The notes beneath the pieces were generated by a model. It did not search any database and was not told the DNA's origin. It was given only the letters and a program-made list of their open reading frames with translations. From Clostridioides phage LIBA6276: 64,000 nt of DNA. The stretch's first letter is position 1, and each line of letters starts with the position of its first letter. Location of the stretch: sequence record MF547662.1. One strand, 5' to 3'. Positions 25-27,710 of this stretch are shown in pieces. The translations under genes were made by a program, and so were the position numbers.

Positions 25-3000
25 TTGCCAGGAAATATGGTTCAAGCATTAAATGAGCAATTTGCAAATGCTTTTACAGGAGACAATGCTCCTGAAATCA
101 CACCTAGTGTAAATGGAGAAAAAGCTAAAAAGGAATTAAAAGAGTTAGAAAAATTCAAACAAGATACTTTTAAATCAGATAAAATTGTGACTGAAATTAA
201 TAATAAAGGACTAGATTTCGCAAAAAAAGACTTGAGTGTATTAAAAGAACAGTTGGATAGATTTAAAAATGAAGATACAAAGTTGTCTTTTACTACAGAT
301 TGTGCAGATGCTTTTAAAGATGTAAATTCTTTAGAGGAAGCTAGAAAAAAAATATCTGCTCCAATGAGTTTAAAATATGATATAGATGTAGATAAAAAAG
401 GATTGACTGAAGCAAAAAAAGTCTATGATATTTTACCTGATAATCTCAAAAAAAAGATAGAAACAGAAGTAATAGGTATAGATAAATTAGACACATTACA
501 AAACTTAATAGATAAAGCTCCAAATAAAAAAGAAACTATATTTGAAATAATTAATAAAAATCCAGATAAGCTAAATGAGATAGATGAAATTCTTAATAAC
601 GTTCCAAATGATAAAAAGGAAGCTGTTATTGATTTTATAGTAAATAATTTAGACCAACTTGAAAAAGCTAAAAATGTACAAGAATTTATAAACAATTTAC
701 CTCCAGAAATAAAAAAACAACTTGGAATAGAAGTTGAAGGAGGAGAAAATGCAGAGAAAACTGTTAATACAGTTCAAAATGCAGATGGAACTAAGGCTGA
801 CCTTTTAGTAAATGCAGAAGTAAATGGAGAATCACAAGTAGTTGAATGCATAGAAACATTGGATAAGAATGGTAATAAAACATACACTCCTAATTTAAAT
901 CCTCAAGTTAATAATAGTGAAAAAGTTGTTCAGTGCATGAGAATATTAGATGAATATGGAAATGAATCTTATATTCCAATTGTAAGTCCTCAAGTTACTA
1001 ATGAAGAAGGGCTTAACAGTACTAAACAAAAAATGGATGAGTTAGATAATAAAACAGTAACTTCAACTGTACAAATAAAGACAGAAGGAGAAACTGAAGT
1101 TGAACAAGCAACCAATTTTATAGAAAATACAAATCCAACTAAGGTTATTGAGTTATCCATAAACAACTCTGGTAAAGATGAAATTGACAATACAAAACAA
1201 AAGTTAGATGAACTTAATAATGAAAAAGCCACTCCTACTATTGAAGCTACAGGTGCAGAACAAGCATCCAAACAATTAAATCAATTATCACAAAAAGCAC
1301 AAGAAATTGGGCAAGGTAATTATCATATAAATGTTAGTACTTCAACTGAACAAGGGGCTAAGAATATTTCAGGACTTATAGCTAGAGTAAAACAATTCTT
1401 AGCTTTGAAAGTATCTACACTTGTATTTAGAACTGAAACTGCACAAGCAGCAAAAAATGTATCAGGTTTGTTAGCCAAAGTACAAAGTTATGTTAGCCGA
1501 TATGGTGGAAAAACTATAAAGACTACATTTAGTGCATTAACTGCAACTGCTGCAAAGAACATATCAGGGCTTATTAGGAAAATAGAGTCATTTAAATCAA
1601 ATTATGCAGGAAAAACATTCACTACTACATTTGTAACTAATAAAGTGACTAATAGTTCTGGTGGTGGAGGAGGAGGAAATAGTTCAGATAAGACCAATAA
1701 AACTGAACGTACCTCTGTTACTAATGTAACTCCAATTCCAGCTAATCTATTAGCTCAACCTAGAACATCAGAACCAGCACCAATAAGTGACGAAACTCCT
1801 GTAACACCAAAACCATCCTTATTCTCAAGAGCAGTATCAAGAGCCACATCCGCTTTCAAAGTAATCAAACCTAAAGTTACAATAAACAATGACACAATAG
1901 ACTCATCTGTAAAATATAGTATAGAATTATTTAAAGAGTTAGAAAATGCTATATCAGCAGTAACAAATGAAATAGCTCTATTAGACAAAAAAATGGAACA
2001 TGCTACAGGTGATGAGAAGATTAAATACTTACAGGAGCAAAATAAATTATTTGCTCAACAAAAAGATTTAATAAAACAACAACAAGATGGATATAAAGCT
2101 GAAAGTAACAGACTTAAAAATAGATTAAAAGAAAAGAAAATGGGCTTTAAGTTTGATGATACTGGAAATCTAACTAACTATGAAGAAAAGTTAATATCAA
2201 TAGAAAAAGAATTAGACAAATTAAATTCAAAGTCTGGTGACAAAGAAAATAAAAAAGATGAATCCAGAAAAAAAGAGTTGGAAGAAACTAAGAAAGTCCT
2301 TGAAGAATATATTAAAGTTACATTTACAGAACTGCCTAAATGTGAGCAAGAATGGGAAGAATACAATAATAAAATTAAAGAACACAATGAGGAGTTAAGG
2401 AAAGCACAAGAAGAAATGTGGAAACTTAATAAGAATTCCACATGGACTTCTATGTACAAAGATGTAGAGCAAGTAAATAATGAAATAGCAATGATAGATG
2501 TATTACTTAAAAATGCTACAGGTGATGAGCAGATAGAGTTGTTAGAAAAGAAAAAAGAGTTAATGGCCAAGAAGGCTAAAGAACTATCTGAAACAACAGC
2601 ATATCTTCAAGAAACACAAAAAGAGCTACAACAAAAGCTACAAGGCTATGGATTTACATTTAGAGATAATGGCGATATAACTAACTTCATTCAACATAAA
2701 AATCAACTTAAAAAGAACATGACTGATGAAGAATTTAAGAGAATGGAAGAGGCAGCAGAGGGATATTTGGATTTATTGATAAATAAAATACCTGATGCCA
2801 ATAAGGAAATTGCTGAATCTAAGGAAGAAATTGAAGCATTAAATAAAGAAATTCAAGATGCTTATAAAGACCAGCTTAAAGAAGCTCAAAGCCTACAAGA
2901 AAAAATTAGAGACATGTATAAAAAAGAGCTTGAAGAGAGACTTAAAGAAATAGATAAAGAAACTAAAGCTAAAATTGATTCTCTTAAAAAGCAACAAGAT

Positions 3001-3723
3001 GCTTACAATGATTCAAGAAAAGAAGCCAAATATAAAGATGATTATGAAGAACAACAAGATGTAATAAGTGATTTAGAAAAACAAATAGCAATAGCTGAAA
3101 GAGATAGTTCTTTAAGTGGTCAGAAGAAACTTAAAGATTTACAAAAACAATTAAAAGAAGAACAGAAGAAATTACAGGATTTAGTACAAGACCATGTAGA
3201 CGACCAAGTTAACGATATGTATGACAAGGAATCTGACAGACTACAAGAAGAAGCAGATAAGTTAAAAGAAGAGTTAGAGAAAAAATACTCAGATGAAAAT
3301 TTAGTTGATTTAATTAATGAAGCAATTTCAAGCGGTAAATTTGTAGGTCTTGATGGAGAGGTTAAGAAACTTCAAGATGCTATTATTGAATACATAAATA
3401 AATATGAAGATGGTATGTTGGCAATGGGTTCTGTCACTAAGCAGGAATGGCTCGATAGATTAAAAGAAGGTAAAGAGACATTAGAAGATATTAATGACAT
3501 ATTGGATGAATTAGATTTAAGTAAATTTGCTATGCCTAATTATAATCCTCCTTCAAATTCTCGTTCAAGAAGTACATCTCCAATATCAGCAGTTAATTAT
3601 AATTCACCATTTGTTGTTGTACAAGGGAATGTAACTAAAGATGTAATGCCTGAATTTGAAAAGAAGATGAGGAAAATGATTGAAGAAAATAACAAAAAAA
3701 TTATTTCTAATACTAGGTCTTAA
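25..3723 (+). CDS. tail tape measure protein (frame stays open to nt 1, so the 5' end is probably outside the window)
   Basis: 1232-aa K/E-rich coiled-coil ORF with three ~38-aa internal repeats (AKNISGLIARVKQF / AKNVSGLLAKVQSY / AKNISGLIRKIESF) and a G6 linker; lies upstream of the Dit/Tal-like genes. Confidence 0.7.
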   Translation: MPGNMVQALNEQFANAFTGDNAPEITPSVNGEKAKKELKELEKFKQDTFKSDKIVTEINNKGLDFAKKDLSVLKEQLDRFKNEDTKLSFTTDCADAFKDVNSLEEARKKISAPMSLKYDIDVDKKGLTEAKKVYDILPDNLKKKIETEVIGIDKLDTLQNLIDKAPNKKETIFEIINKNPDKLNEIDEILNNVPNDKKEAVIDFIVNNLDQLEKAKNVQEFINNLPPEIKKQLGIEVEGGENAEKTVNTVQNADGTKADLLVNAEVNGESQVVECIETLDKNGNKTYTPNLNPQVNNSEKVVQCMRILDEYGNESYIPIVSPQVTNEEGLNSTKQKMDELDNKTVTSTVQIKTEGETEVEQATNFIENTNPTKVIELSINNSGKDEIDNTKQKLDELNNEKATPTIEATGAEQASKQLNQLSQKAQEIGQGNYHINVSTSTEQGAKNISGLIARVKQFLALKVSTLVFRTETAQAAKNVSGLLAKVQSYVSRYGGKTIKTTFSALTATAAKNISGLIRKIESFKSNYAGKTFTTTFVTNKVTNSSGGGGGGNSSDKTNKTERTSVTNVTPIPANLLAQPRTSEPAPISDETPVTPKPSLFSRAVSRATSAFKVIKPKVTINNDTIDSSVKYSIELFKELENAISAVTNEIALLDKKMEHATGDEKIKYLQEQNKLFAQQKDLIKQQQDGYKAESNRLKNRLKEKKMGFKFDDTGNLTNYEEKLISIEKELDKLNSKSGDKENKKDESRKKELEETKKVLEEYIKVTFTELPKCEQEWEEYNNKIKEHNEELRKAQEEMWKLNKNSTWTSMYKDVEQVNNEIAMIDVLLKNATGDEQIELLEKKKELMAKKAKELSETTAYLQETQKELQQKLQGYGFTFRDNGDITNFIQHKNQLKKNMTDEEFKRMEEAAEGYLDLLINKIPDANKEIAESKEEIEALNKEIQDAYKDQLKEAQSLQEKIRDMYKKELEERLKEIDKETKAKIDSLKKQQDAYNDSRKEAKYKDDYEEQQDVISDLEKQIAIAERDSSLSGQKKLKDLQKQLKEEQKKLQDLVQDHVDDQVNDMYDKESDRLQEEADKLKEELEKKYSDENLVDLINEAISSGKFVGLDGEVKKLQDAIIEYINKYEDGMLAMGSVTKQEWLDRLKEGKETLEDINDILDELDLSKFAMPNYNPPSNSRSRSTSPISAVNYNSPFVVVQGNVTKDVMPEFEKKMRKMIEENNKKIISNTRS

Positions 3724-3824
3724 TATATGTAATTGGTCTTTATTTATTATTCACTCATTTACTTACGTTTTATAATTTATAGTCAGATTTTTTTTGAAAA
3801 TATATATTTATCTAATAAAAAATA

Positions 3825-3855
3825 TTGTTTATAAAAAACGTATTTATGATATAAT
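3825..3855 (+). promoter_or_regulatory. sigma-A-type promoter (TTGTTT-19-TATAAT) for the antisense RNA of TA module 1
   Basis: hexamers read from the sequence; the 19-nt spacer is long. Confidence 0.3.
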
Positions 3856-3928
3856 AGTAATATAAATGATATAAATTTATATCATAAAGACATAAAAAAA
3901 GAGACTACAACTATTTGTGCTAGGGTGT
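3851..3928. repeat. ~80-nt conserved block, copy A (repeated at 4381-4458)
   Basis: ataatagtaatataaatgatataaatttatatcata is identical over 36 nt, then ~90% identical through gagactacaa...agggtgt. Confidence 0.85.
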
Positions 3929-4003
3929 CTCTTCATAAATAAGCGAAGTGTTAATTAGAGGAAGAATCACCTGAATTGCCGTTCGGGTGATTCTTAATTT
4001 TTT
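3860..4003 (+). ncRNA. candidate type I antitoxin antisense RNA 1
   Basis: runs from the promoter at 3825-3855 to an intrinsic terminator at 3962-4003; convergent with the minus-strand toxin ORF and overlaps its 3' end (3951-4003); ~80-nt 5' block nearly identical to 4381-4458. Confidence 0.4.
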
Positions 4004-4130
4004 GCAACGTTTTCTTAAACTCATCTATTTCTTTAAAGAGTCTATTTAAATTCTGAACCAACTTAATCAAACTAATAATTATAGTTGTAAGAAATGTTAT
4101 TATCGTTAACAAACAAATTAGATATTTCAT
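3951..4130 (-). CDS. small hydrophobic toxin-like protein, 59 aa (MKYLICLLTIITFLTTIIISLIKLVQNLNRLFKEIDEFKKTLQKIKNHPNGNSGDSSSN); candidate type I toxin
   Basis: ATG at 4130 with GGAGG upstream; single predicted TM helix plus charged tail; absent from the ORF track (below 60 aa); paralogue at 4491-4652. Confidence 0.55.
   Translation of the reverse strand: MKYLICLLTIITFLTTIIISLIKLVQNLNRLFKEIDEFKKTLQKIKNHPNGNSGDSSSN
3962..4003 (+). terminator. rho-independent terminator of antisense RNA 1
   Basis: aagaatcacc...ggtgattctt stem followed by aatttttt. Confidence 0.6.
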
Positions 4131-4188
4131 AATATCATATCACCTCCCCTCTTGATTTGACATGGGAAGGCTTATGTATATGAAGATT

Positions 4189-4267
4189 CACCCTAATAGT
4201 TTTTTTATGTAGTCTCTAAAAATATTATACCATAAATTACCAATATGTTAAATTTAATATTATATTG
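4189..4267. repeat. ~80-nt conserved block, copy A' (repeated at 4696-4774); candidate toxin-1 promoter and 5' UTR region on the minus strand
   Basis: tcaccctaatagt...gtagtctctaaaaatattataccataa..ccaatatgttaaatttaatattatattg is shared; contains tggtataat on the minus strand. Confidence 0.8.
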
Positions 4268-4355
4268 TCTACAATTGTAAAAGAATATTGTGTTCTAAGA
4301 AGTTATTCTATTAATAGTATAGCTTTTTTATTTTTCAATGAAGATAATGACAACA

Positions 4356-4385
4356 TTGACTATTTTGATAATATTGGAGTATAAT
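4356..4385 (+). promoter_or_regulatory. promoter TTGACT-18-TATAAT for antisense RNA 2
   Basis: good consensus hexamers. Confidence 0.45.
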
Positions 4386-4458
4386 AGTAATATAAATGAT
4401 ATAAATTTATATCATAGGGACATAAAAAAGAGACTACAAACTATTTGCTGTAGGGTGT
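4381..4458. repeat. conserved block, copy B (matches 3851-3928)
   Basis: direct alignment of the two copies. Confidence 0.85.
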
Positions 4459-4545
4459 AGTTCTTAAAGTTAACAATAAAAAGAATAGATTTATGTATTA
4501 CTTTCAGAATCACTAGACCCGCCAGTCTGGTGATTCTTTAGTTTT
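4392..4545 (+). ncRNA. candidate type I antitoxin antisense RNA 2
   Basis: promoter at 4356-4385 and terminator at 4506-4545; overlaps the toxin-2 3' end (4491-4545). Confidence 0.45.
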
Positions 4546-4652
4546 CTAATAGATGCTTTCAAGTTTAAGATTGCATCTATTAGCTTTGTCAAATGATTGA
4601 TTATTCTTGTAATCATAATTATCATTATTAAAAACAAAACTAAGTACTCCAT
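4491..4652 (-). CDS. small hydrophobic toxin-like protein, 53 aa (MEYLVLFLIMIIMITRIINHLTKLIDAILNLKASIRKLKNHQTGGSSDSESNT)
   Basis: ATG at 4652 with GGGGTGAG upstream; TM helix plus KLKNHxxGxSxDS tail shared with the 3951-4130 protein. Confidence 0.55.
   Translation of the reverse strand: MEYLVLFLIMIIMITRIINHLTKLIDAILNLKASIRKLKNHQTGGSSDSESNT
4506..4545 (+). terminator. rho-independent terminator of antisense RNA 2
   Basis: agaatcactagac / gtctggtgattct 13-bp stem followed by ttagtttt. Confidence 0.6.
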
Positions 4653-4695
4653 AGTCTCACCCCCTTTCTTACTGGGGATTTTAACTAAAGAGCCA

Positions 4696-4774
4696 TCACC
4701 CTAATAGTCTAAACTGTAGTCTCTAAAAATATTATACCATAATTTTCCAATATGTTAAATTTAATATTATATTG
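4696..4774. repeat. conserved block, copy B' (matches 4189-4267)
   Basis: direct alignment of the two copies. Confidence 0.8.
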
Positions 4775-4852
4775 ACGACAGGAGTAGAATAAAGATATAA
4801 TACAGATAACAGAAAATTTAAAAATTTTACATAAGAATTACTACTTATCTAT

Positions 4853-4877
4853 GCCACCTTAAAAAGTGGCTATTTTT
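4853..4877 (+). terminator. small hairpin followed by a T-run (gccac-N8-gtggc tattttt)
   Basis: seen in sequence; no obvious upstream + strand gene. Confidence 0.25.
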
Positions 4878-4910
4878 CTATTCTGGTATATATTTAAGGA
4901 GGTGTTACAA

Positions 4911-5066
4911 ATGATAAATAATATAGAAGATTGTAAGCTTCTTATTGAGGCAGAAATAAGAATGAAAGATATAGATGAAAAAGAACTAATATCTCAAAGG
5001 GAGATTCTGAAAGACCTAAATATTAATGAAAAAGACCTTGAAGATATTGAAGTGAATTTTGAATAA
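4911..5066 (+). CDS. small acidic hypothetical protein, 51 aa (MINNIEDCKLL...)
   Basis: AAGGAGGTG RBS 5 nt before the ATG at 4911; the track ORF 4866-5066 starts upstream with no RBS. Confidence 0.45.
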   Translation: MINNIEDCKLLIEAEIRMKDIDEKELISQREILKDLNINEKDLEDIEVNFE

Positions 5067-5167
5067 TGAAATGATTTATAATATACCTATTTTAAATATG
5101 TATTAGTTGATATCAGTAATCGTCTTTATCTAGTGATTTTTTATTTATTAACTGTAAACGAATCTGT

Positions 5168-5195
5168 TTTACAAAAAACGTATCTGTGGTATAAT
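5168..5195 (+). promoter_or_regulatory. promoter TTTACA-16-(TG)gTATAAT for antisense RNA 3
   Basis: extended -10 motif tgtggtataat. Confidence 0.45.
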
Positions 5196-5201
5196 AAAAG
5201 T

Positions 5202-5307
5202 AAGGAATTTAATCTACTTAATACAAAGAGTGATTGTTTCCTTAAAGTTAATTAAAAATTAATTTATCTTTTGAAACCACTCTTATTGGCGTCTGAGTGG
5301 TTTTTTG
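5202..5307 (+). ncRNA. candidate type I antitoxin antisense RNA 3 (~105 nt)
   Basis: promoter at 5168-5195, terminator at 5274-5307; overlaps the toxin-3 3' end (5264-5307). Confidence 0.45.
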
Positions 5308-5380
5308 CTTTATCATATATGTAACAAGCTATTAAACTTGTTGCAATATTTAGGCAAATATTAAACACTACTGTTTCCAT
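5264..5380 (-). CDS. small hydrophobic toxin-like protein, 38 aa (METVVFNICLNIATSLIACYIYDKAKNHSDANKSGFKR)
   Basis: GGAGGTGAATTT-ATG; paralogue of the 25552-25683 ORF (shared YIYDKxKxHSxAxKSG motif). Confidence 0.55.
   Translation of the reverse strand: METVVFNICLNIATSLIACYIYDKAKNHSDANKSGFKR
5274..5307 (+). terminator. rho-independent terminator (aaaccactc...gagtggttttttg)
   Basis: stem-loop plus a U6 run. Confidence 0.6.
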
Positions 5381-5582
5381 AAATTCACCTCCTTATAAAA
5401 AAATAAAGCGAGGCTCACCTCCTTCCTTTGAAGAAGTAGGCTAAATACAGAAACAACCACTCTTAGCACTTTCGATTTAAAATTCCTTACTATACTAGAT
5501 TATACCATAATTTTACAATTAATAAAATATTTTAGCTCATCTTAATTGATGGGCTTTTCTAATACAAAGAAGGTGATAAAAT

Positions 5583-7298
5583 ATGCATTTTAATGTGAAT
5601 CTTAAACAGATAAAATCTGATTACACATTAACCATTCACAAGATGAACAAATCATTTTTAGGTCAAATTCCAATCAACTTTTTAAACTCGATAAAGCGGG
5701 AGCTTGGTGGAGTAGATGAAATACAACTGACCATTCCAAAATATATTACAGATAGATTTTTATTTAATAAAATAATAAATCCCATTTTTGAAGAAGTAAA
5801 AGAAGAACGTCTTATTTGTCTTAATAATAAAGAGTACTTTGTAATTAAGAATGTTGTAACAACAGATGATAAGTTAAAAGTAGTAACAGCTAAATCTAAA
5901 GAAGTTAAACTAGGAAAAATTGATGTGAATATTGAGGACTATGGATTACAGATGTTTACCAAAGATGAAGAAGCATCTATTATATCTCTTAATGATTATT
6001 TAAAACAAGAGACAGGCTGGAAACTTGGTTATGTGGATGATTCAATTGCTTATGAAACTGATAGTGAAGGTAATAAGAGAGAAAAGGTAAGATGGCAAGA
6101 AAGTATTAATTCTAACTGGTTAGACTATTTTAATAATGAACTAAAAGAACAATTTGAATGTATAGCTGATTTTGATACTTATAATAATTTAGTTAATTTG
6201 TATCATATAGATAGTTTTGGAGATAACATTCAGTTATATTTATCTCATGATAACTACATAAAATCACTTGAAAGAACTACAAATAGTGATGATATAGTAA
6301 CTAGACTGAAGCTTGAAGGTAGTGAAGATATGAATGTAATAGGAGCTACAGTTACAGGATATGATTACATTGAGAACTATTCTTATTTCTTAGACAATAA
6401 AGAAATGAGTGAAGAACTTAGTAGAGCTATAAAGAAATACCAAGAAATGAATGAAATAAGAGAGCCAATTTGGAGAGAACTAATAGATACAAAGCTTAAG
6501 AAGCAAAGAGAACGTGATAGTAAAAGCAACGAATGGCAAATGGTAATAGAGATGATAAGTAAGAAAAAAGATATAAAAAAGACATATGATAATCCACAGC
6601 ATAAAGATGAAATAAATTCAGCTAAAATAGCAGTAGAGATAAGTGAACTAGAAGATAAAAAAGTCATATTGGATGTTCAAATAAAACATTTAGAAGAAGA
6701 AATAGCTAAGTTAAATGAAAGTATAAAAGATATAAATATTCTTTGTAAGAGGGAGACTTCAACTGATGAGGATGGATATCTAATATTTAATGAGGTTCTA
6801 TTAGATGAATTAAATGAGTTCCTCTACTATGACACTTATACAAATGATGCTTTTTTAAAAGTTGAAGATTTAATAGCAGAAGGTAAAAGGCAATTAAGTT
6901 TGAAATGTATTCCAACACGAGAATGGACTCTGGATGTTATAAACTTCTTAGATAGAATTATAGATATTAATTTTAGACAGCATTGGAAGGGTGATTTGAG
7001 CTTAGGAGATATTATAGTGTTACATAGCAAAGAATCTAAAGAAGAAGAATTAGTATATTTTACATCTTTTACCCAGAATTTAAAAAACGGGAAGTTAGAT
7101 ACTTTAGAATTAACTTTAAGTAATAAAAAAATAAAAGAAGATGACAAAAGAACTATAGCTGATTATTTGACTAAAGCTGAACACGCAACAAGAACATTGA
7201 ACTCTAAAAGACATTTATTTATTCAGCAACAGAAGAAAAGAATTAACCTACCAGATGAATATATTCCTAAGAAAAATATACAAAAGGAGTTGATGTAG
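5583..7298 (+). CDS. phage distal tail protein (Dit-like) or tail family protein
   Basis: 571-aa ORF with a good RBS; position follows the tape-measure gene; no diagnostic motif seen. Confidence 0.4.
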   Translation: MHFNVNLKQIKSDYTLTIHKMNKSFLGQIPINFLNSIKRELGGVDEIQLTIPKYITDRFLFNKIINPIFEEVKEERLICLNNKEYFVIKNVVTTDDKLKVVTAKSKEVKLGKIDVNIEDYGLQMFTKDEEASIISLNDYLKQETGWKLGYVDDSIAYETDSEGNKREKVRWQESINSNWLDYFNNELKEQFECIADFDTYNNLVNLYHIDSFGDNIQLYLSHDNYIKSLERTTNSDDIVTRLKLEGSEDMNVIGATVTGYDYIENYSYFLDNKEMSEELSRAIKKYQEMNEIREPIWRELIDTKLKKQRERDSKSNEWQMVIEMISKKKDIKKTYDNPQHKDEINSAKIAVEISELEDKKVILDVQIKHLEEEIAKLNESIKDINILCKRETSTDEDGYLIFNEVLLDELNEFLYYDTYTNDAFLKVEDLIAEGKRQLSLKCIPTREWTLDVINFLDRIIDINFRQHWKGDLSLGDIIVLHSKESKEEELVYFTSFTQNLKNGKLDTLELTLSNKKIKEDDKRTIADYLTKAEHATRTLNSKRHLFIQQQKKRINLPDEYIPKKNIQKELM

Positions 7299-25444: not shown

Positions 25445-25463
25445 ATGTTATTTACATGAAATT

Positions 25464-25494
25464 TTGTTTTAATATTCTTAATTTGTGGTATAAT
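25464..25494 (+). promoter_or_regulatory. promoter TTGTTT-19-(TG)gTATAAT for antisense RNA 4
   Basis: same architecture as the promoters at 3825 and 5168. Confidence 0.4.
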
Positions 25495-25500
25495 AAAAGC

Positions 25501-25622
25501 AAGGAAACATATTTTACTTAACTTTGAGTGATGTTTCCAAACTAAATTAGTTTATTTGGATTTTCTTTGGAACTTAATATTAAGTTCCCAGCCACTCTTA
25601 GTCGCGTTTGAGTGGCTTTTTA
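25501..25622 (+). ncRNA. candidate type I antitoxin antisense RNA 4
   Basis: promoter and terminator present; overlaps the toxin-4 3' end (25552-25622). Confidence 0.45.
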
Positions 25623-25683
25623 ATTTATCGTAGATATAACTAGCTATAACACCAGCTATAATACTCATCATTAGATTTTCCAT
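25552..25683 (-). CDS. small hydrophobic toxin-like protein, 43 aa (MENLMMSIIAGVIASYIYDKLKSHSNATKSGWELNIKFQRKSK)
   Basis: AAAGGAGGTG RBS 8 nt upstream of the ATG at 25683; paralogue of the 5264-5380 ORF. Confidence 0.55.
   Translation of the reverse strand: MENLMMSIIAGVIASYIYDKLKSHSNATKSGWELNIKFQRKSK
25590..25622 (+). terminator. rho-independent terminator (agccactc-N12-gagtggct ttttt)
   Basis: seen in sequence; homologous to the 5274-5307 terminator. Confidence 0.6.
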
Positions 25684-25865
25684 AGTTTTTCACCTCCTTT
25701 CATAAGAAAGTGAGGAAATTTCTATGGAAACACCACTCACAGCTTTTTCAAATATTTATTCCTTGCTATGTTTATTATATCATAAATATTGGAAATATAA
25801 AATTTTAATATTTTCTAAAATCTGACGCTTTAAACGCCATTCTAAGGCTTTATAAAAATTTACCT

Positions 25866-27710
25866 TTATATTTGTACCTTTGTTTTTTTATCATACAAAT
25901 TATATATTGGATATAATTTAAATTTATTCAATAATTCTTTACTCATATTATTCATATTATTTTTAGCTTCTTCATACTTTTCAATTAATATATTTATCGC
26001 ACATTGAATCATTATGTCTTTTGAGTTTTTTCTTTTAATATTATCTAAATCAAGTATTTCATCAATGCTAAAATTTCTAATCCTTTTTATTATTTGATAT
26101 TTATTAATTTTGTTTATATCTACATCAACTTCATTTTCTATCCATTCTAATAACTCTAGTGCCTCAATTAAATATTCTTTAATAAGTATTTTATCATAGT
26201 ATTTAATTAATTCTAAAATATATGACATGACTCTATCTGTATACTCTGGTGTTTTTTTATATTTTTTAATATTTATAGTTGCTTTACTTACATCGAAATT
26301 AATACTATCCATATCATTATAATTTAAAAGTATATATGGACTGCATTGCATGTCTCCTTCTCTTTGAGTAATAGTAAGGTTATTTTTTTTATCAAAAATA
26401 TTAATAAGATTCCAACTATTATCTGTTTCTATCTTATATAAGATTATTTTCTTTTCATTAATTTTCATATATGCAAATCCTGAATGTTTACTCATATTCT
26501 TTTTTTTAATTGTTTTATTATTAATAAATATACTTATAAGTGTATTTATCTTCCCATAATCTTCCTGAGACATATTATCTAATAAGAAATTTTCTTGTTT
26601 TATTTCAAGCATCTCTAATAGATTCTTAAAATCTTCAAAAAATAATATATTTTCTATTAAATCATTTTCTTCGCATGGCATAGTTTTTAAATCTAAATCA
26701 ATAAGTTTATCTTTTGTTGAAAATTCTTTTATAAGTACTTTTTTATGTTTAAATATATCTAATAACATCTTTAAATTATTTAAATGACTATCAACAGTTC
26801 CACTTGGTTCTTTTATCGTAAAATTTATATCAATAGACTTATTGATTAATTTCTCATCTAATATACGGTAAATATAAATAACAATAAAATTATTGATAGT
26901 TATTTTGTGATTGGTTTTATTTACTGTTGATATATATTCATTATTTTTATAAATATTATTTTTTATAAAAATATCTACAATAGTTTTTGTATTTAATTCT
27001 TTAAGATACAATTTATTCACACAAGGTAAATCAATTGTATCTAAATCTTCATGTTTAAGTGGTTTGTAAGCATACACACTTCTATTAAATAAATCATATC
27101 TATTATCTATTTCTGCAATATCTATTGAAATCTCTTTGTCTCTTTCACTTAGTTCTATTTGTTTATCTACTAAATTTTTTGTTTGTTTATTTATATTACG
27201 ATAAAACGAATTAACTATTCTTTCAAAATGATTATTTTCAGGTCTTAGTTCATATAGCTCTACAGACTTGGTCAATTGATTTTTCTTCGTTCTATCTATT
27301 TCATTTAATATATTTATCAAATCAACTGGAAGTAAATTTCTATAATAAACTTTTATTTTGTTAACACTTTTAATTTCAACAACAAATAAAATAACACCTT
27401 CATTATTGTAGTAGTTTCTTAAATCACTAACATCCATTGAAAAAGTTCTTTTTTTGCCACTTAACTTTTTTACCTCCTTTGCTTTAAGTTGTATATTTAT
27501 TTTTCTTAATAAATTTTCTTTTTTATTATCTAAACAATTTTCCTTCTCAATTTTATTTTTTTCATATAAAAATAGTTCTCCGTCCCAAGATGGTGTTTTG
27601 TCATTTGATTGAATATTTGCTTCAATATTTCCCGCAATCGCACATAATTTTTGAATCTCAGCAATAGATAAATTTTCCTTGTGTATATTTGAAATCTTAC
27701 TTGTTCCCAT
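25866..27710 (-). CDS. large hypothetical protein, 614 aa; orphan and lysine-rich; possible phage-defence or abortive-infection candidate
   Basis: strong RBS AAAGGAGGTGGC; no recognisable catalytic motif; sits between the integrase and a TA module. Confidence 0.5.
   Translation of the reverse strand: MGTSKISNIHKENLSIAEIQKLCAIAGNIEANIQSNDKTPSWDGELFLYEKNKIEKENCLDNKKENLLRKINIQLKAKEVKKLSGKKRTFSMDVSDLRNYYNNEGVILFVVEIKSVNKIKVYYRNLLPVDLINILNEIDRTKKNQLTKSVELYELRPENNHFERIVNSFYRNINKQTKNLVDKQIELSERDKEISIDIAEIDNRYDLFNRSVYAYKPLKHEDLDTIDLPCVNKLYLKELNTKTIVDIFIKNNIYKNNEYISTVNKTNHKITINNFIVIYIYRILDEKLINKSIDINFTIKEPSGTVDSHLNNLKMLLDIFKHKKVLIKEFSTKDKLIDLDLKTMPCEENDLIENILFFEDFKNLLEMLEIKQENFLLDNMSQEDYGKINTLISIFINNKTIKKKNMSKHSGFAYMKINEKKIILYKIETDNSWNLINIFDKKNNLTITQREGDMQCSPYILLNYNDMDSINFDVSKATINIKKYKKTPEYTDRVMSYILELIKYYDKILIKEYLIEALELLEWIENEVDVDINKINKYQIIKRIRNFSIDEILDLDNIKRKNSKDIMIQCAINILIEKYEEAKNNMNNMSKELLNKFKLYPIYNLYDKKTKVQI

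Follow-up and report, generated by a model that had tools for sequence, protein, structure and literature searches.

The closest described counterparts of the locus reported here are the toxin-antitoxin (TA) modules of type I in Clostridioides difficile, of which we compared CD0956.2-RCd10, CD2907.1-RCd9, CD2517.1-RCd8, CD0977.1-RCd11, CD0904.1 and CD0956.3 (PMC5961336, PMC7699646). In CD2517.1-RCd8 and CD0956.2-RCd10 the antitoxin RNA was measured at 134-140 nucleotides (nt) and the toxin mRNA at 298-306 nt, with a leader of 83-88 nt (PMC5961336). In the characterised modules the antitoxin has a half-life of 8 min and the toxin mRNA one of 89 min, RNase III cuts the duplex of the two RNAs in vitro (PMC5961336, PMC7699646), and both plasmids and the phage phiCD630-1 are stabilised (PMC7699646). 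Here we describe module 1, a locus in a 64,000-nt stretch of DNA from Clostridioides phage LIBA6276 (MF547662.1; this whole stretch is the window, and position 1 is its first letter), in which a 59-amino-acid (aa) open reading frame (ORF) on the minus strand, T1, faces a convergent antisense RNA. We read module 1, at a probability of roughly three in four, as a type I TA cassette that an extrachromosomal phage-plasmid of C. difficile carries as a moron among its tail genes: a probable type I TA module, whose predicted toxin would belong to a family of previously unknown function. Its arrangement is repeated in a paralogous module 530 nt downstream (module 2, with ORF T2), and two further modules of canonical type (modules 3 and 4) lie in the same window.

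Module 1 resembles the RCd-type modules in its host, in the kind of mobile element that carries it and in its convergent sigma-A-type promoters. Its antisense RNA, predicted at ~142 nt, is close in size to the measured antitoxins and likewise terminates inside the C-terminal codons of the toxin gene, and its toxin mRNA, predicted at 325 nt with an 87-nt leader, corresponds to the ~300-nt mRNA, ~85-nt leader and sequestered ribosome-binding site of that group. The two groups also have in common a toxin with an N-terminal hydrophobic helix and a K-x-K-N/S-H motif that is coded, in both, by the stem of the antitoxin terminator. The promoter regions of module 1 resemble those of module 3, and the canonical-type modules 3 and 4 share the complementarity between the two untranslated regions (UTRs) of the toxin mRNA that we describe below. 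A preliminary description of this DNA had proposed the C. difficile type I architecture for module 1; our in silico tests all agree with it, and the predicted sizes fit those of the mapped modules (PMC5961336). T1 differs from the characterised toxins in lacking significant protein similarity to them (PHROG 5620 as against 738), in being longer, with an extra amphipathic helix between the membrane segment and the motif, and in ending in a Ser/Asp/Asn-rich, net negative tail where theirs is lysine-rich. We consider that module 1 may share ancestry with the RCd-type modules at the level of the cassette and may work as they do.

Among other Gram-positive systems, Bacillus subtilis txpA/RatA (on skin), bsrG/SR4 (on SPbeta) and yonT/SR6 also lie in prophages, TxpA (59 aa) and YonT (58 aa) are close to T1 in size, and we know of no description of 5'-3' toxin-mRNA closure in these systems. 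As in module 1, their antisense RNAs overlap the toxin 3' end including the ORF (PMC8594479), and the action of SR4 on bsrG (cited in PMC5961336) resembles the refolding over the Shine-Dalgarno (SD) sequence and start codon that we predict for the leader of module 1, although not of module 2; the B. subtilis modules have no sequence similarity to module 1 (Pfam scan without a match). Closure of the toxin mRNA by 5'-3' pairing, together with sequestration of the ribosome-binding site, is shared with hok/sok (plasmid R1) and aapA1/IsoA1 (Helicobacter pylori), whose role in maintaining their elements may be likened to the one proposed here. However, it is on the 5' side or at the start region that Sok and IsoA1 act, whereas the antisense RNA of module 1 lies at the 3' end, covers the 3' arm of the closure and would compete with the 5' end; sequences and hosts are unrelated, and neither Pfam nor Rfam gave a sign of homology to Hok or to Sok RNA.

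The antisense RNA has a predicted promoter and terminator of its own (Table 1). In the promoter first proposed, TTGTTT…TATAAT, the -10 hexamer (3850-3855) stands, but TTGTTT at 3825 would impose a 19-nt spacer, and TTTATA at 3828-3833, 16 nt away, is the better -35 element; this register is conserved in module 3, where positions 5148-5196 are 73% identical to the antitoxin promoter over 49 nt (repeat family D4). The predicted RNA folds with a minimum free energy (MFE) of -36.9 kcal/mol (z -4.8; equalled by none of 200 shuffles). Its 5' stem-loop, the palindrome ATGATATAAATTTATATCAT, recurs identically in module 2 (4396-4415) and is not present in the relatives from Clostridioides (Metaclostridioides) mangenotii and metagenomes, in which the antisense promoters lie nearer the 3' arm. 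At the other end, the intrinsic terminator that the preliminary description had placed in the last codons of the toxin proves to have a 15-pair stem (3962-3995) followed by a T-run to 4003.

We compared seven lineages, namely modules 1 and 2 (M1, M2) and L122, L124, L126, L127 and L132. Because an RNAalifold analysis of the MAFFT alignment of antitoxin cores lost the central hairpin to indel misalignment and so covered the terminator only, helices elsewhere were checked lineage by lineage. The terminator retains 14 pairs in the alignment, four of them with compensatory double changes and one column reading UA, GU, CG and GC. Read on the antisense strand, its wobbles (U-G, G-U) are permitted pairs, while the toxin strand would have A-C mismatches in their place, which indicates that the hairpin is selected on the plus strand, as expected of an antitoxin terminator. 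The 17-mer GAATTGCCGTTCGGGTG is identical in module 1, L122 and L124 despite protein identities of 38-41%, so that third codon positions appear to be constrained by RNA, and in both L122 and L124 the antisense terminator again falls exactly over the KNHPNGNS codons, with a convergent TTGACT-type promoter ~100 nt downstream of the stop codon. A convergent antisense RNA with its own promoter, terminating in the 3' codons of the toxin, is thus predicted for module 1 and kept in L122, L124 and C. mangenotii. Covariance models of Rfam 15 gave no match over positions 3000-6500 on either strand at E<=1, which leaves the RNA outside the antitoxin families of that collection. Its hexaloop, UUGCCG, and the complementary CGGCAA of the toxin mRNA would be the obvious site of first contact between the two.

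Modules 2 and 3 carry copies of the toxin promoter of module 1 (repeat families D1 and D2); to the eye, TGGTATA in the -10 region of this promoter looks like the -10 box of SigB, and a matching SigB -35 element was not found. The leader had been drawn as 4189-4267 with the motif agagacuaca. The motif is there, as the extreme 5' end of the predicted mRNA (AGAGACUACA), but the leader itself would run from 4217 to 4131, 4220-4267 being promoter. The complement of the motif, AGAGACTACA, does lie beyond the toxin 3' end, at 3900-3909 of the plus strand, with its reverse complement at 4208-4217. The mRNA most likely ends at the U7 tract of the 3' UTR (3899-3893), and an mRNA reaching this tract would overlap the antisense RNA by ~110 nt, 53 nt of them in the coding sequence, rather than by the ~50 nt first estimated.

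Folding of the 326-nt RNA from 4217 to 3892 gave an MFE of -88.4 kcal/mol (z -6.5; matched in 0 of 100 shuffles) and a structure with 32 base pairs between the first 48 nt and the last ~50 nt, in the 3' UTR. The hok-like fold-back that had been called conceivable is thus predicted in the MFE structure, and its helices covary across the seven lineages. Five of them (M1, M2, L122, L126 and L132) are predicted to form an anti-SD/SD hairpin; in the leaders of L124 and L127 the SD lies in paired structure, and a clear anti-SD arm was not seen. When the 3' 112 nt of module 1 were blocked in silico, the probability of being unpaired rose from 0.04 to 0.84 at the 5' end, and the freed leader (the helix C arms) covered the start codon (0.56 to 0.01) and lengthened the SD helix.

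Table 1. Window coordinates of the predicted features of module 1 and of landmarks in modules 2 to 4
Feature	Position	Strand	Remarks
Antitoxin promoter, TTTATA, 16-nt spacer, TGaTATAAT (extended -10)	3828..3855	+	10/12 matches, TG present
Predicted antitoxin RNA, ~142 nt	3862..4003	+	start taken 7 nt past the -10 box; end at the terminator T-run
5' stem-loop of antitoxin RNA, ATGATATAAATTTATATCAT	3866..3885	+	perfect 20-nt palindrome; inverted repeat I3
Antitoxin intrinsic terminator, AAGAATCACCTGAA-TTGCCG-TTCGGGTGATTCTT then AATTTTTT	3962..4003	+	inside toxin codons K46-S56
Toxin promoter, TTAACA, 16-nt spacer, TGgTATAAT	4224..4251	-	11/12 matches, TG present
Predicted full-length toxin mRNA, ~325 nt	3893..4217	-	start A4217; both ends predicted
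Helix A 5' arm, AGAGACUACA	4208..4217	-	at predicted +1; 10/10 pairs with 3909-3900 (UGUAGUCUCU)
Helix B 5' arm, UAGGGUG	4189..4195	-	7/7 pairs with 3927-3921 (CACCCUA)
Helix C 5' arms, UCUUCAUA ... AUAAGC	4170..4186	-	pair with 3944-3930 in the full-length fold
Anti-SD, CCUUCCC	4164..4170	-	sequesters the SD (GGGGAGG) in the MFE structure
SD of toxin mRNA, GGGGAGGUG	4141..4149	-	held by the anti-SD in the MFE fold; mean P(unpaired) 0.18
Toxin-candidate coding sequence (T1), 59 aa	3951..4130	-	hydrophobic helix, then Lys-rich amphipathic helix, then polar/acidic tail NHPNGNSGDSSSN
Toxin 3' UTR, ending in the U7 tract	3893..3950	-	3' arms of helices C, B and A at 3944-3930, 3927-3921 and 3909-3900
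Module 2 antisense promoter	4356-4385	+	
Module 2 terminator	4506-4545	+	
Module 2 toxin promoter	4758-4731	-	
Module 3 (5150-5530) toxin T3, 38 aa	5264-5380	-	NF047374, E 5e-7
Module 4 (25450-25800) toxin T4, 43 aa	25552-25683	-	NF047374, E 7e-15

Module 1 occupies, as first described, the position after the tape-measure gene, whose ORF ends at 3723 (the tape-measure label comes from the phiCD211 and phiCDIF1296T records). It lies within a 1.9-kb gap that extends to the start of the next tail gene at 5583, and its toxin gene is on the strand opposite to the flanking tail genes. Over positions 3700-5600 the window matches Clostridioides phage LIBA2945 (MF547663.1) at 100% identity and phiCD211/phiCDIF1296T at 97.5%. 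The LIBA2945/phiCD5763 type is phiCD211-like; phiCD5763 in LIBA-2945 is a 132.5-kb siphophage that is kept outside the chromosome as a circle and has parM-like genes (PMC5786514), and ~5% of C. difficile genomes hold phiCD211-like phage-plasmids (PMC6127314). The locus had been called unannotated, which is true of MF547663 but not of phiCD211 (PHICD211_29023) or phiCDIF1296T (phi026), where the ORF is listed as a hypothetical protein. The literature searched, which did not cover the original phiCD211 description, mentions neither a type I TA module in phiCD211-like phages nor a phrog_5620-type protein, and the supplementary files of Peltier 2020 mention neither phiCD211 nor LIBA2945 nor the motif. 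Between 3723 and 5583 we also noted at least four terminator-like hairpins on the plus strand (at 3962, 4506, ~5274 and 5534), which late tail transcription must pass through or restart beyond; any transcript that reads through would be complementary to each of the three toxin mRNAs of the gap.

The 59-aa ORF (MKYLICLL...KIKNHPNGNSGDSSSN) is present at 3951-4130 of the minus strand, as originally stated, with GGGGAGGTGA 10 nt upstream of its ATG. By comparative criteria it is a real gene under purifying selection, because it is intact in every variant, shows an excess of synonymous changes and has distant homologues. Phage records and IMG/VR contigs supplied 12 non-redundant DNA variants of module 1 (91-100% identity), in all of which the ORF is uninterrupted; synonymous to non-synonymous changes in the four most divergent stand at 11:4, 9:3, 7:1 and 10:7, and residues 51-52, encoded in the loop of the embedded hairpin, account for most of the amino-acid changes. 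In one variant (L095, 2395-2885) the centre of the hairpin seems to be inverted, the toxin strand reading CACCTGAACTGCCATTCGGGTG, so that the peptide becomes KNHLNCHSG and the wobble pair shifts to the other strand. AlphaFold2 models T1 as a single continuous helix over residues 2-46 (predicted local distance difference test score 89, and 93-98 over residues 1-40) with a disordered tail. Residues 1-24 are strongly hydrophobic (grand average of hydropathy 2.03), as expected of an N-terminal transmembrane segment, and the net charge is +4, with the positive charges in the juxtamembrane helix (residues 23-46).

T1 and T2 match phrog_5620, a family of unknown function (E 4e-29 and 6e-23). Among 1.84 billion representative proteins, searched exhaustively with HMMER, there were just two more relatives, P0018 (57 aa) and P0019 (58 aa), which are 38-41% identical to T1, similar to it in length and layout, and end in KIKNHPNGNSDDSEENF and KIRNHPNGNSDGSDDN; a profile search added only T2-type proteins to these, and a word-indexed protein search with T1 returned only two near-identical C. 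difficile proteins. In the L124 lineage (2960-3177) the database start of P0019 looks too short; if translation began at a TTG 7 nt past GAGGAGGTGA, the protein would gain MGLIV and a longer hydrophobic N-terminus. Tblastn of T1 against phages found phiCD211-like phages only, in alignments that low-complexity masking limited to residues 25-59. A genome scan with the hairpin 17-mer revealed unannotated members in C. mangenotii, ending ...KKLKHPNGNSDASD and ...KITKHPNGNSDASDK; across GTDB genomes the same pattern gave ~50 chance matches, in high-GC genomes, so that only the C. mangenotii loci are relevant. Matches of the 16-mer AAAAAAGAGACTACAA in IMG/VR were likewise mostly due to chance, in unrelated viruses, and real only where paired ~530 nt apart. 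Module 1 itself was found in phiCD211-like phages and in ~130-kb C. difficile "plasmids", with no annotated feature beneath the match in seven of the nine plasmid records, and partially in two 300-kb Clostridioides megaplasmids. As far as seen, the T1 family is small, mobile and confined to relatives of Clostridioides.

This distribution bears on the possibility that T1 is a non-toxic prophage membrane protein, such as a moron for superinfection exclusion or for blocking injection, or a holin-like accessory protein, whose antisense RNA would tune its level or insulate it from tail-operon transcription. Exclusion morons occur at comparable tail-module positions in other siphophages, module 1 sits within the tail module beside the tape-measure gene, phrog_5620 has no known function, and the tail of T1 is acidic, unlike that of the characterised C. 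difficile toxins. However, the homologues are also found outside tail modules, those on two metagenome contigs adjoining integrase, Fic and helix-turn-helix genes, and the association with the tape-measure gene is therefore not conserved. The RNA anatomy, with its closed mRNA, sequestered SD, strongly promoted antisense RNA and terminator within the coding sequence, is the signature of type I TA systems and is common to the neighbouring modules whose proteins match the curated type I toxin model, albeit under its cut-off; and one variant of module 2 has no start codon, a loss often seen in toxic genes. We thus regard a non-toxic role as unlikely.

We also weighed whether the 5'-3' complementarity could be a by-product of an inverted repeat in the DNA, in which gene conversion keeps two facing promoter-leader copies similar. 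It is true that AGAGACTACA...CTATT...TAGGGTG occurs in the same order in the leader of the toxin mRNA and in the antitoxin RNA, and both promoters are of the TGnTATAAT type with similar starts. Yet the helices behave as RNA helices of the toxin strand. Helix A spans 10-15 bp and helix B 7-12 bp, with all pairs canonical in the seven lineages, and the sequences differ among lineages (AGAGACUACA:UGUAGUCUCU, GAGAUUACAU:AUGUAAUCUC, AAGGGUUACAACUG:CAGUUGUAACUCUU) with compensatory changes. The two helices have 10 imperfect internal positions; each forms G-U on the toxin strand, with no A-C and no transversion mismatch, which points to selection on the minus-strand RNA and argues against homogenisation of a DNA inverted repeat, from which no such asymmetry would be expected; the wobbles of the antitoxin terminator have the opposite strand polarity. 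In all lineages the arms also lie exactly at the mRNA +1 and beside a tract rich in U: the -10 box precedes the start of helix A by 5-7 nt throughout, and the 3' arm leads straight into five or six consecutive U in five of the seven lineages, the tract being shorter or interrupted in L122 and L124. These features make an origin by gene conversion alone improbable.

Shuffling tests likewise favour a selected closure of the toxin mRNA. Duplexes between leader and 3' UTR reach z -4.4 to -6.7 in modules 1-4 (0 of 300 shuffles) and z -3.1 to -11 in L122, L126, L132 and L127, and for six of the seven lineages no shuffle attains the observed duplex between the UTRs. L124 fails this simple test (z -1.5), yet its helices A and B are fully paired (15/15 and 11/11). 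On thermodynamic prediction and covariation together, hok/sok-type pairing of the mRNA ends is among the best-supported predicted features of module 1, and unusually well supported.

Several observations weigh against reading module 1 as a type I TA cassette. The comparison with the CD0956.2/CD2907.1 toxin family that the preliminary description had proposed proved negative: NCBIfam NF047374 (CD_typeI_toxin; the CD0956.2/CD0977.1/CD0904.1 group) gave no match to T1 or T2 at E<=1, the Pfam scan of T1 produced only sub-threshold noise, and hhalign of a T1/T2 profile with the canonical profile aligned eight columns (KxKNH) at a probability of 2%. We accordingly rejected T1 as a divergent CD_typeI_toxin, the shared element being only KxKNH at the terminator stem and the similarity not significant. 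The lysine-rich, positive C-terminal tail of the characterised toxins (PMC7699646) was not found in T1, whose last 13 residues are Ser/Asp/Asn-rich with a net charge of -1 (+3 in T3 and T4), and conservation of the KNHPNGNS motif could partly reflect constraints on RNA rather than protein. The toxin mRNA 3' end is uncertain because the local hairpin of the 3' UTR, the candidate terminator on the minus strand, is weak alone (-10.2 kcal/mol, z -1.45). The refolding over the start codon was not reproduced in module 2, so that start-codon occlusion is kept at the level of conjecture. Finally, promoter-like hexamers are common by chance in this AT-rich region (36, against 20.8 +/- 5.1 in shuffles). 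This last count and the silence of the LIBA2945 annotation, Rfam and Pfam could suggest that the region is a set of intergenic bidirectional terminators and fortuitous promoter-like sites with a non-functional ORF and antisense RNA, but such a reading can hardly be sustained given the conserved ORF with its synonymous excess, homologues at 38-41% identity that keep length and layout, covariation that is strand-specific in the antisense terminator as well as in the helices of the toxin mRNA, and terminator-like sites ~8-fold over shuffles (6 in the 3-kb region against 0.7 +/- 0.9). The arrangement of module 1 appears to be more than chance, as it recurs in the paralogue and in five further lineages.

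Taking module 1 as a type I TA cassette, we propose the following mechanism. In the toxin mRNA (4217 to 3893), the first ~48 nt would be closed onto the 3' UTR and the ribosome-binding site held in the anti-SD hairpin, so that the mRNA should be stable and poorly translated; modelling of the 5'-3' closure is compatible with a stable toxin mRNA. The antitoxin RNA (3862 to 4003) would be the full complement of the last ~110 nt of this mRNA, including the 3' arms of helices A-C, and since its central part has the same sequence as the mRNA 5' end, both would compete for the 3' UTR. Pairing would probably start at the GC-rich complementary hexaloops and extend into a long duplex, a substrate for RNase III, and would push the toxin 5' end off the 3' UTR, freeing the leader, in module 1 only, to cover the start codon. 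On loss of the phage-plasmid, the labile antitoxin would decay, the stable toxin mRNA would be translated and the membrane peptide would halt growth, a post-segregational killing that would stabilise the prophage. What the comparisons show is a gene under selection, with predicted promoters and terminator in place and with both RNA structures conserved through strand-specific covariation; the transcript ends, toxicity, membrane action, involvement of RNase III, RNA half-lives and maintenance role are inferred by analogy with CD0977.1-RCd11, CD2907.1-RCd9 and bsrG/SR4.

A broader and decidedly tentative proposal joins four elements, namely that phrog_5620 is a type I toxin family, unrecognised until now, on mobile elements of Peptostreptococcaceae, that one segment is under triple constraint, that the antitoxin mimics the 5' end of the mRNA and that the closure is a trait, not yet described, of C. 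difficile RCd-type modules in general. Under this joint proposal, which we consider doubtful as a whole, a single segment would serve as the K-N-H-P-N-G-N-S motif, the antitoxin terminator and the kissing loop, and the antitoxin would open a circularised, protected mRNA, leading to its decay and, in module 1, to occlusion of the start codon.

The neighbouring modules provide context for these proposals. Module 2 (4340-4780) is 67% identical to module 1 in DNA over ~440 nt, and T2 (4491-4652, minus strand, 53 aa) is 39% identical to T1 (E 5e-9). Across the ~28 nt that open the leader, and across the first ~60 nt of antitoxin and 3' UTR, the two are nearly identical, so that cross-talk between their antitoxins is possible. 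In one IMG/VR contig (2541047286_000015; L007, 6924-7394) the start codon of module 2 has changed from ATG to ATA in an otherwise 99.6% identical sequence, and this toxin looks inactivated. In L091, L114 and L049 the G-run of the module 2 SD region (~4655-4665) varies from 5 to 10 G, which could reflect a slippage-prone tract that alters both SD strength and spacing, or an assembly error.

T3 and T4, of modules 3 and 4, match NF047374 with scores under the 60-bit cut-off of the model, belong to phrog_738, have tblastn relatives in many C. difficile phages and are both without annotation in MF547663. The promoter regions of modules 1 and 2 are similar to that of module 3 (repeat families D2 and D4; blastn within the window, E 6e-4 and 2e-3). 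The two UTRs of the toxin mRNA are complementary in modules 3 and 4 too (z -5.6 and -6.7), so that type I TA modules of C. difficile may share this closure as a rule. Between modules 2 and 3 lies a plus-strand, 51-aa acidic ORF (4912-5067, MINNIEDCKLL...) with a strong SD, a promoter-like TTGACG-18-TATAAT at 4772-4801 and a hairpin at 4853-4870, annotated as hypothetical protein LIBA2945_00033; a 614-aa minus-strand ORF (25866-27710) adjoins module 4.

Three tandem type I TA cassettes in the tail module, with a fourth elsewhere, would help to explain the stable inheritance of these phage-plasmids and would also hinder efforts to cure strains of phiCD211-like elements. Module 1 and its paralogue would extend the type I TA repertoire of C. 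difficile to a toxin family that homology searches with CD0956.2/CD0904.1 miss and that annotation pipelines mostly overlook. T1 could provide another counter-selection marker, in the manner of CD2517.1 in pMSR vectors (PMC7699646). A closure supported by covariation may, in addition, offer an account both of long-lived toxin mRNAs and of their control by an antisense RNA that binds at the 3' end.

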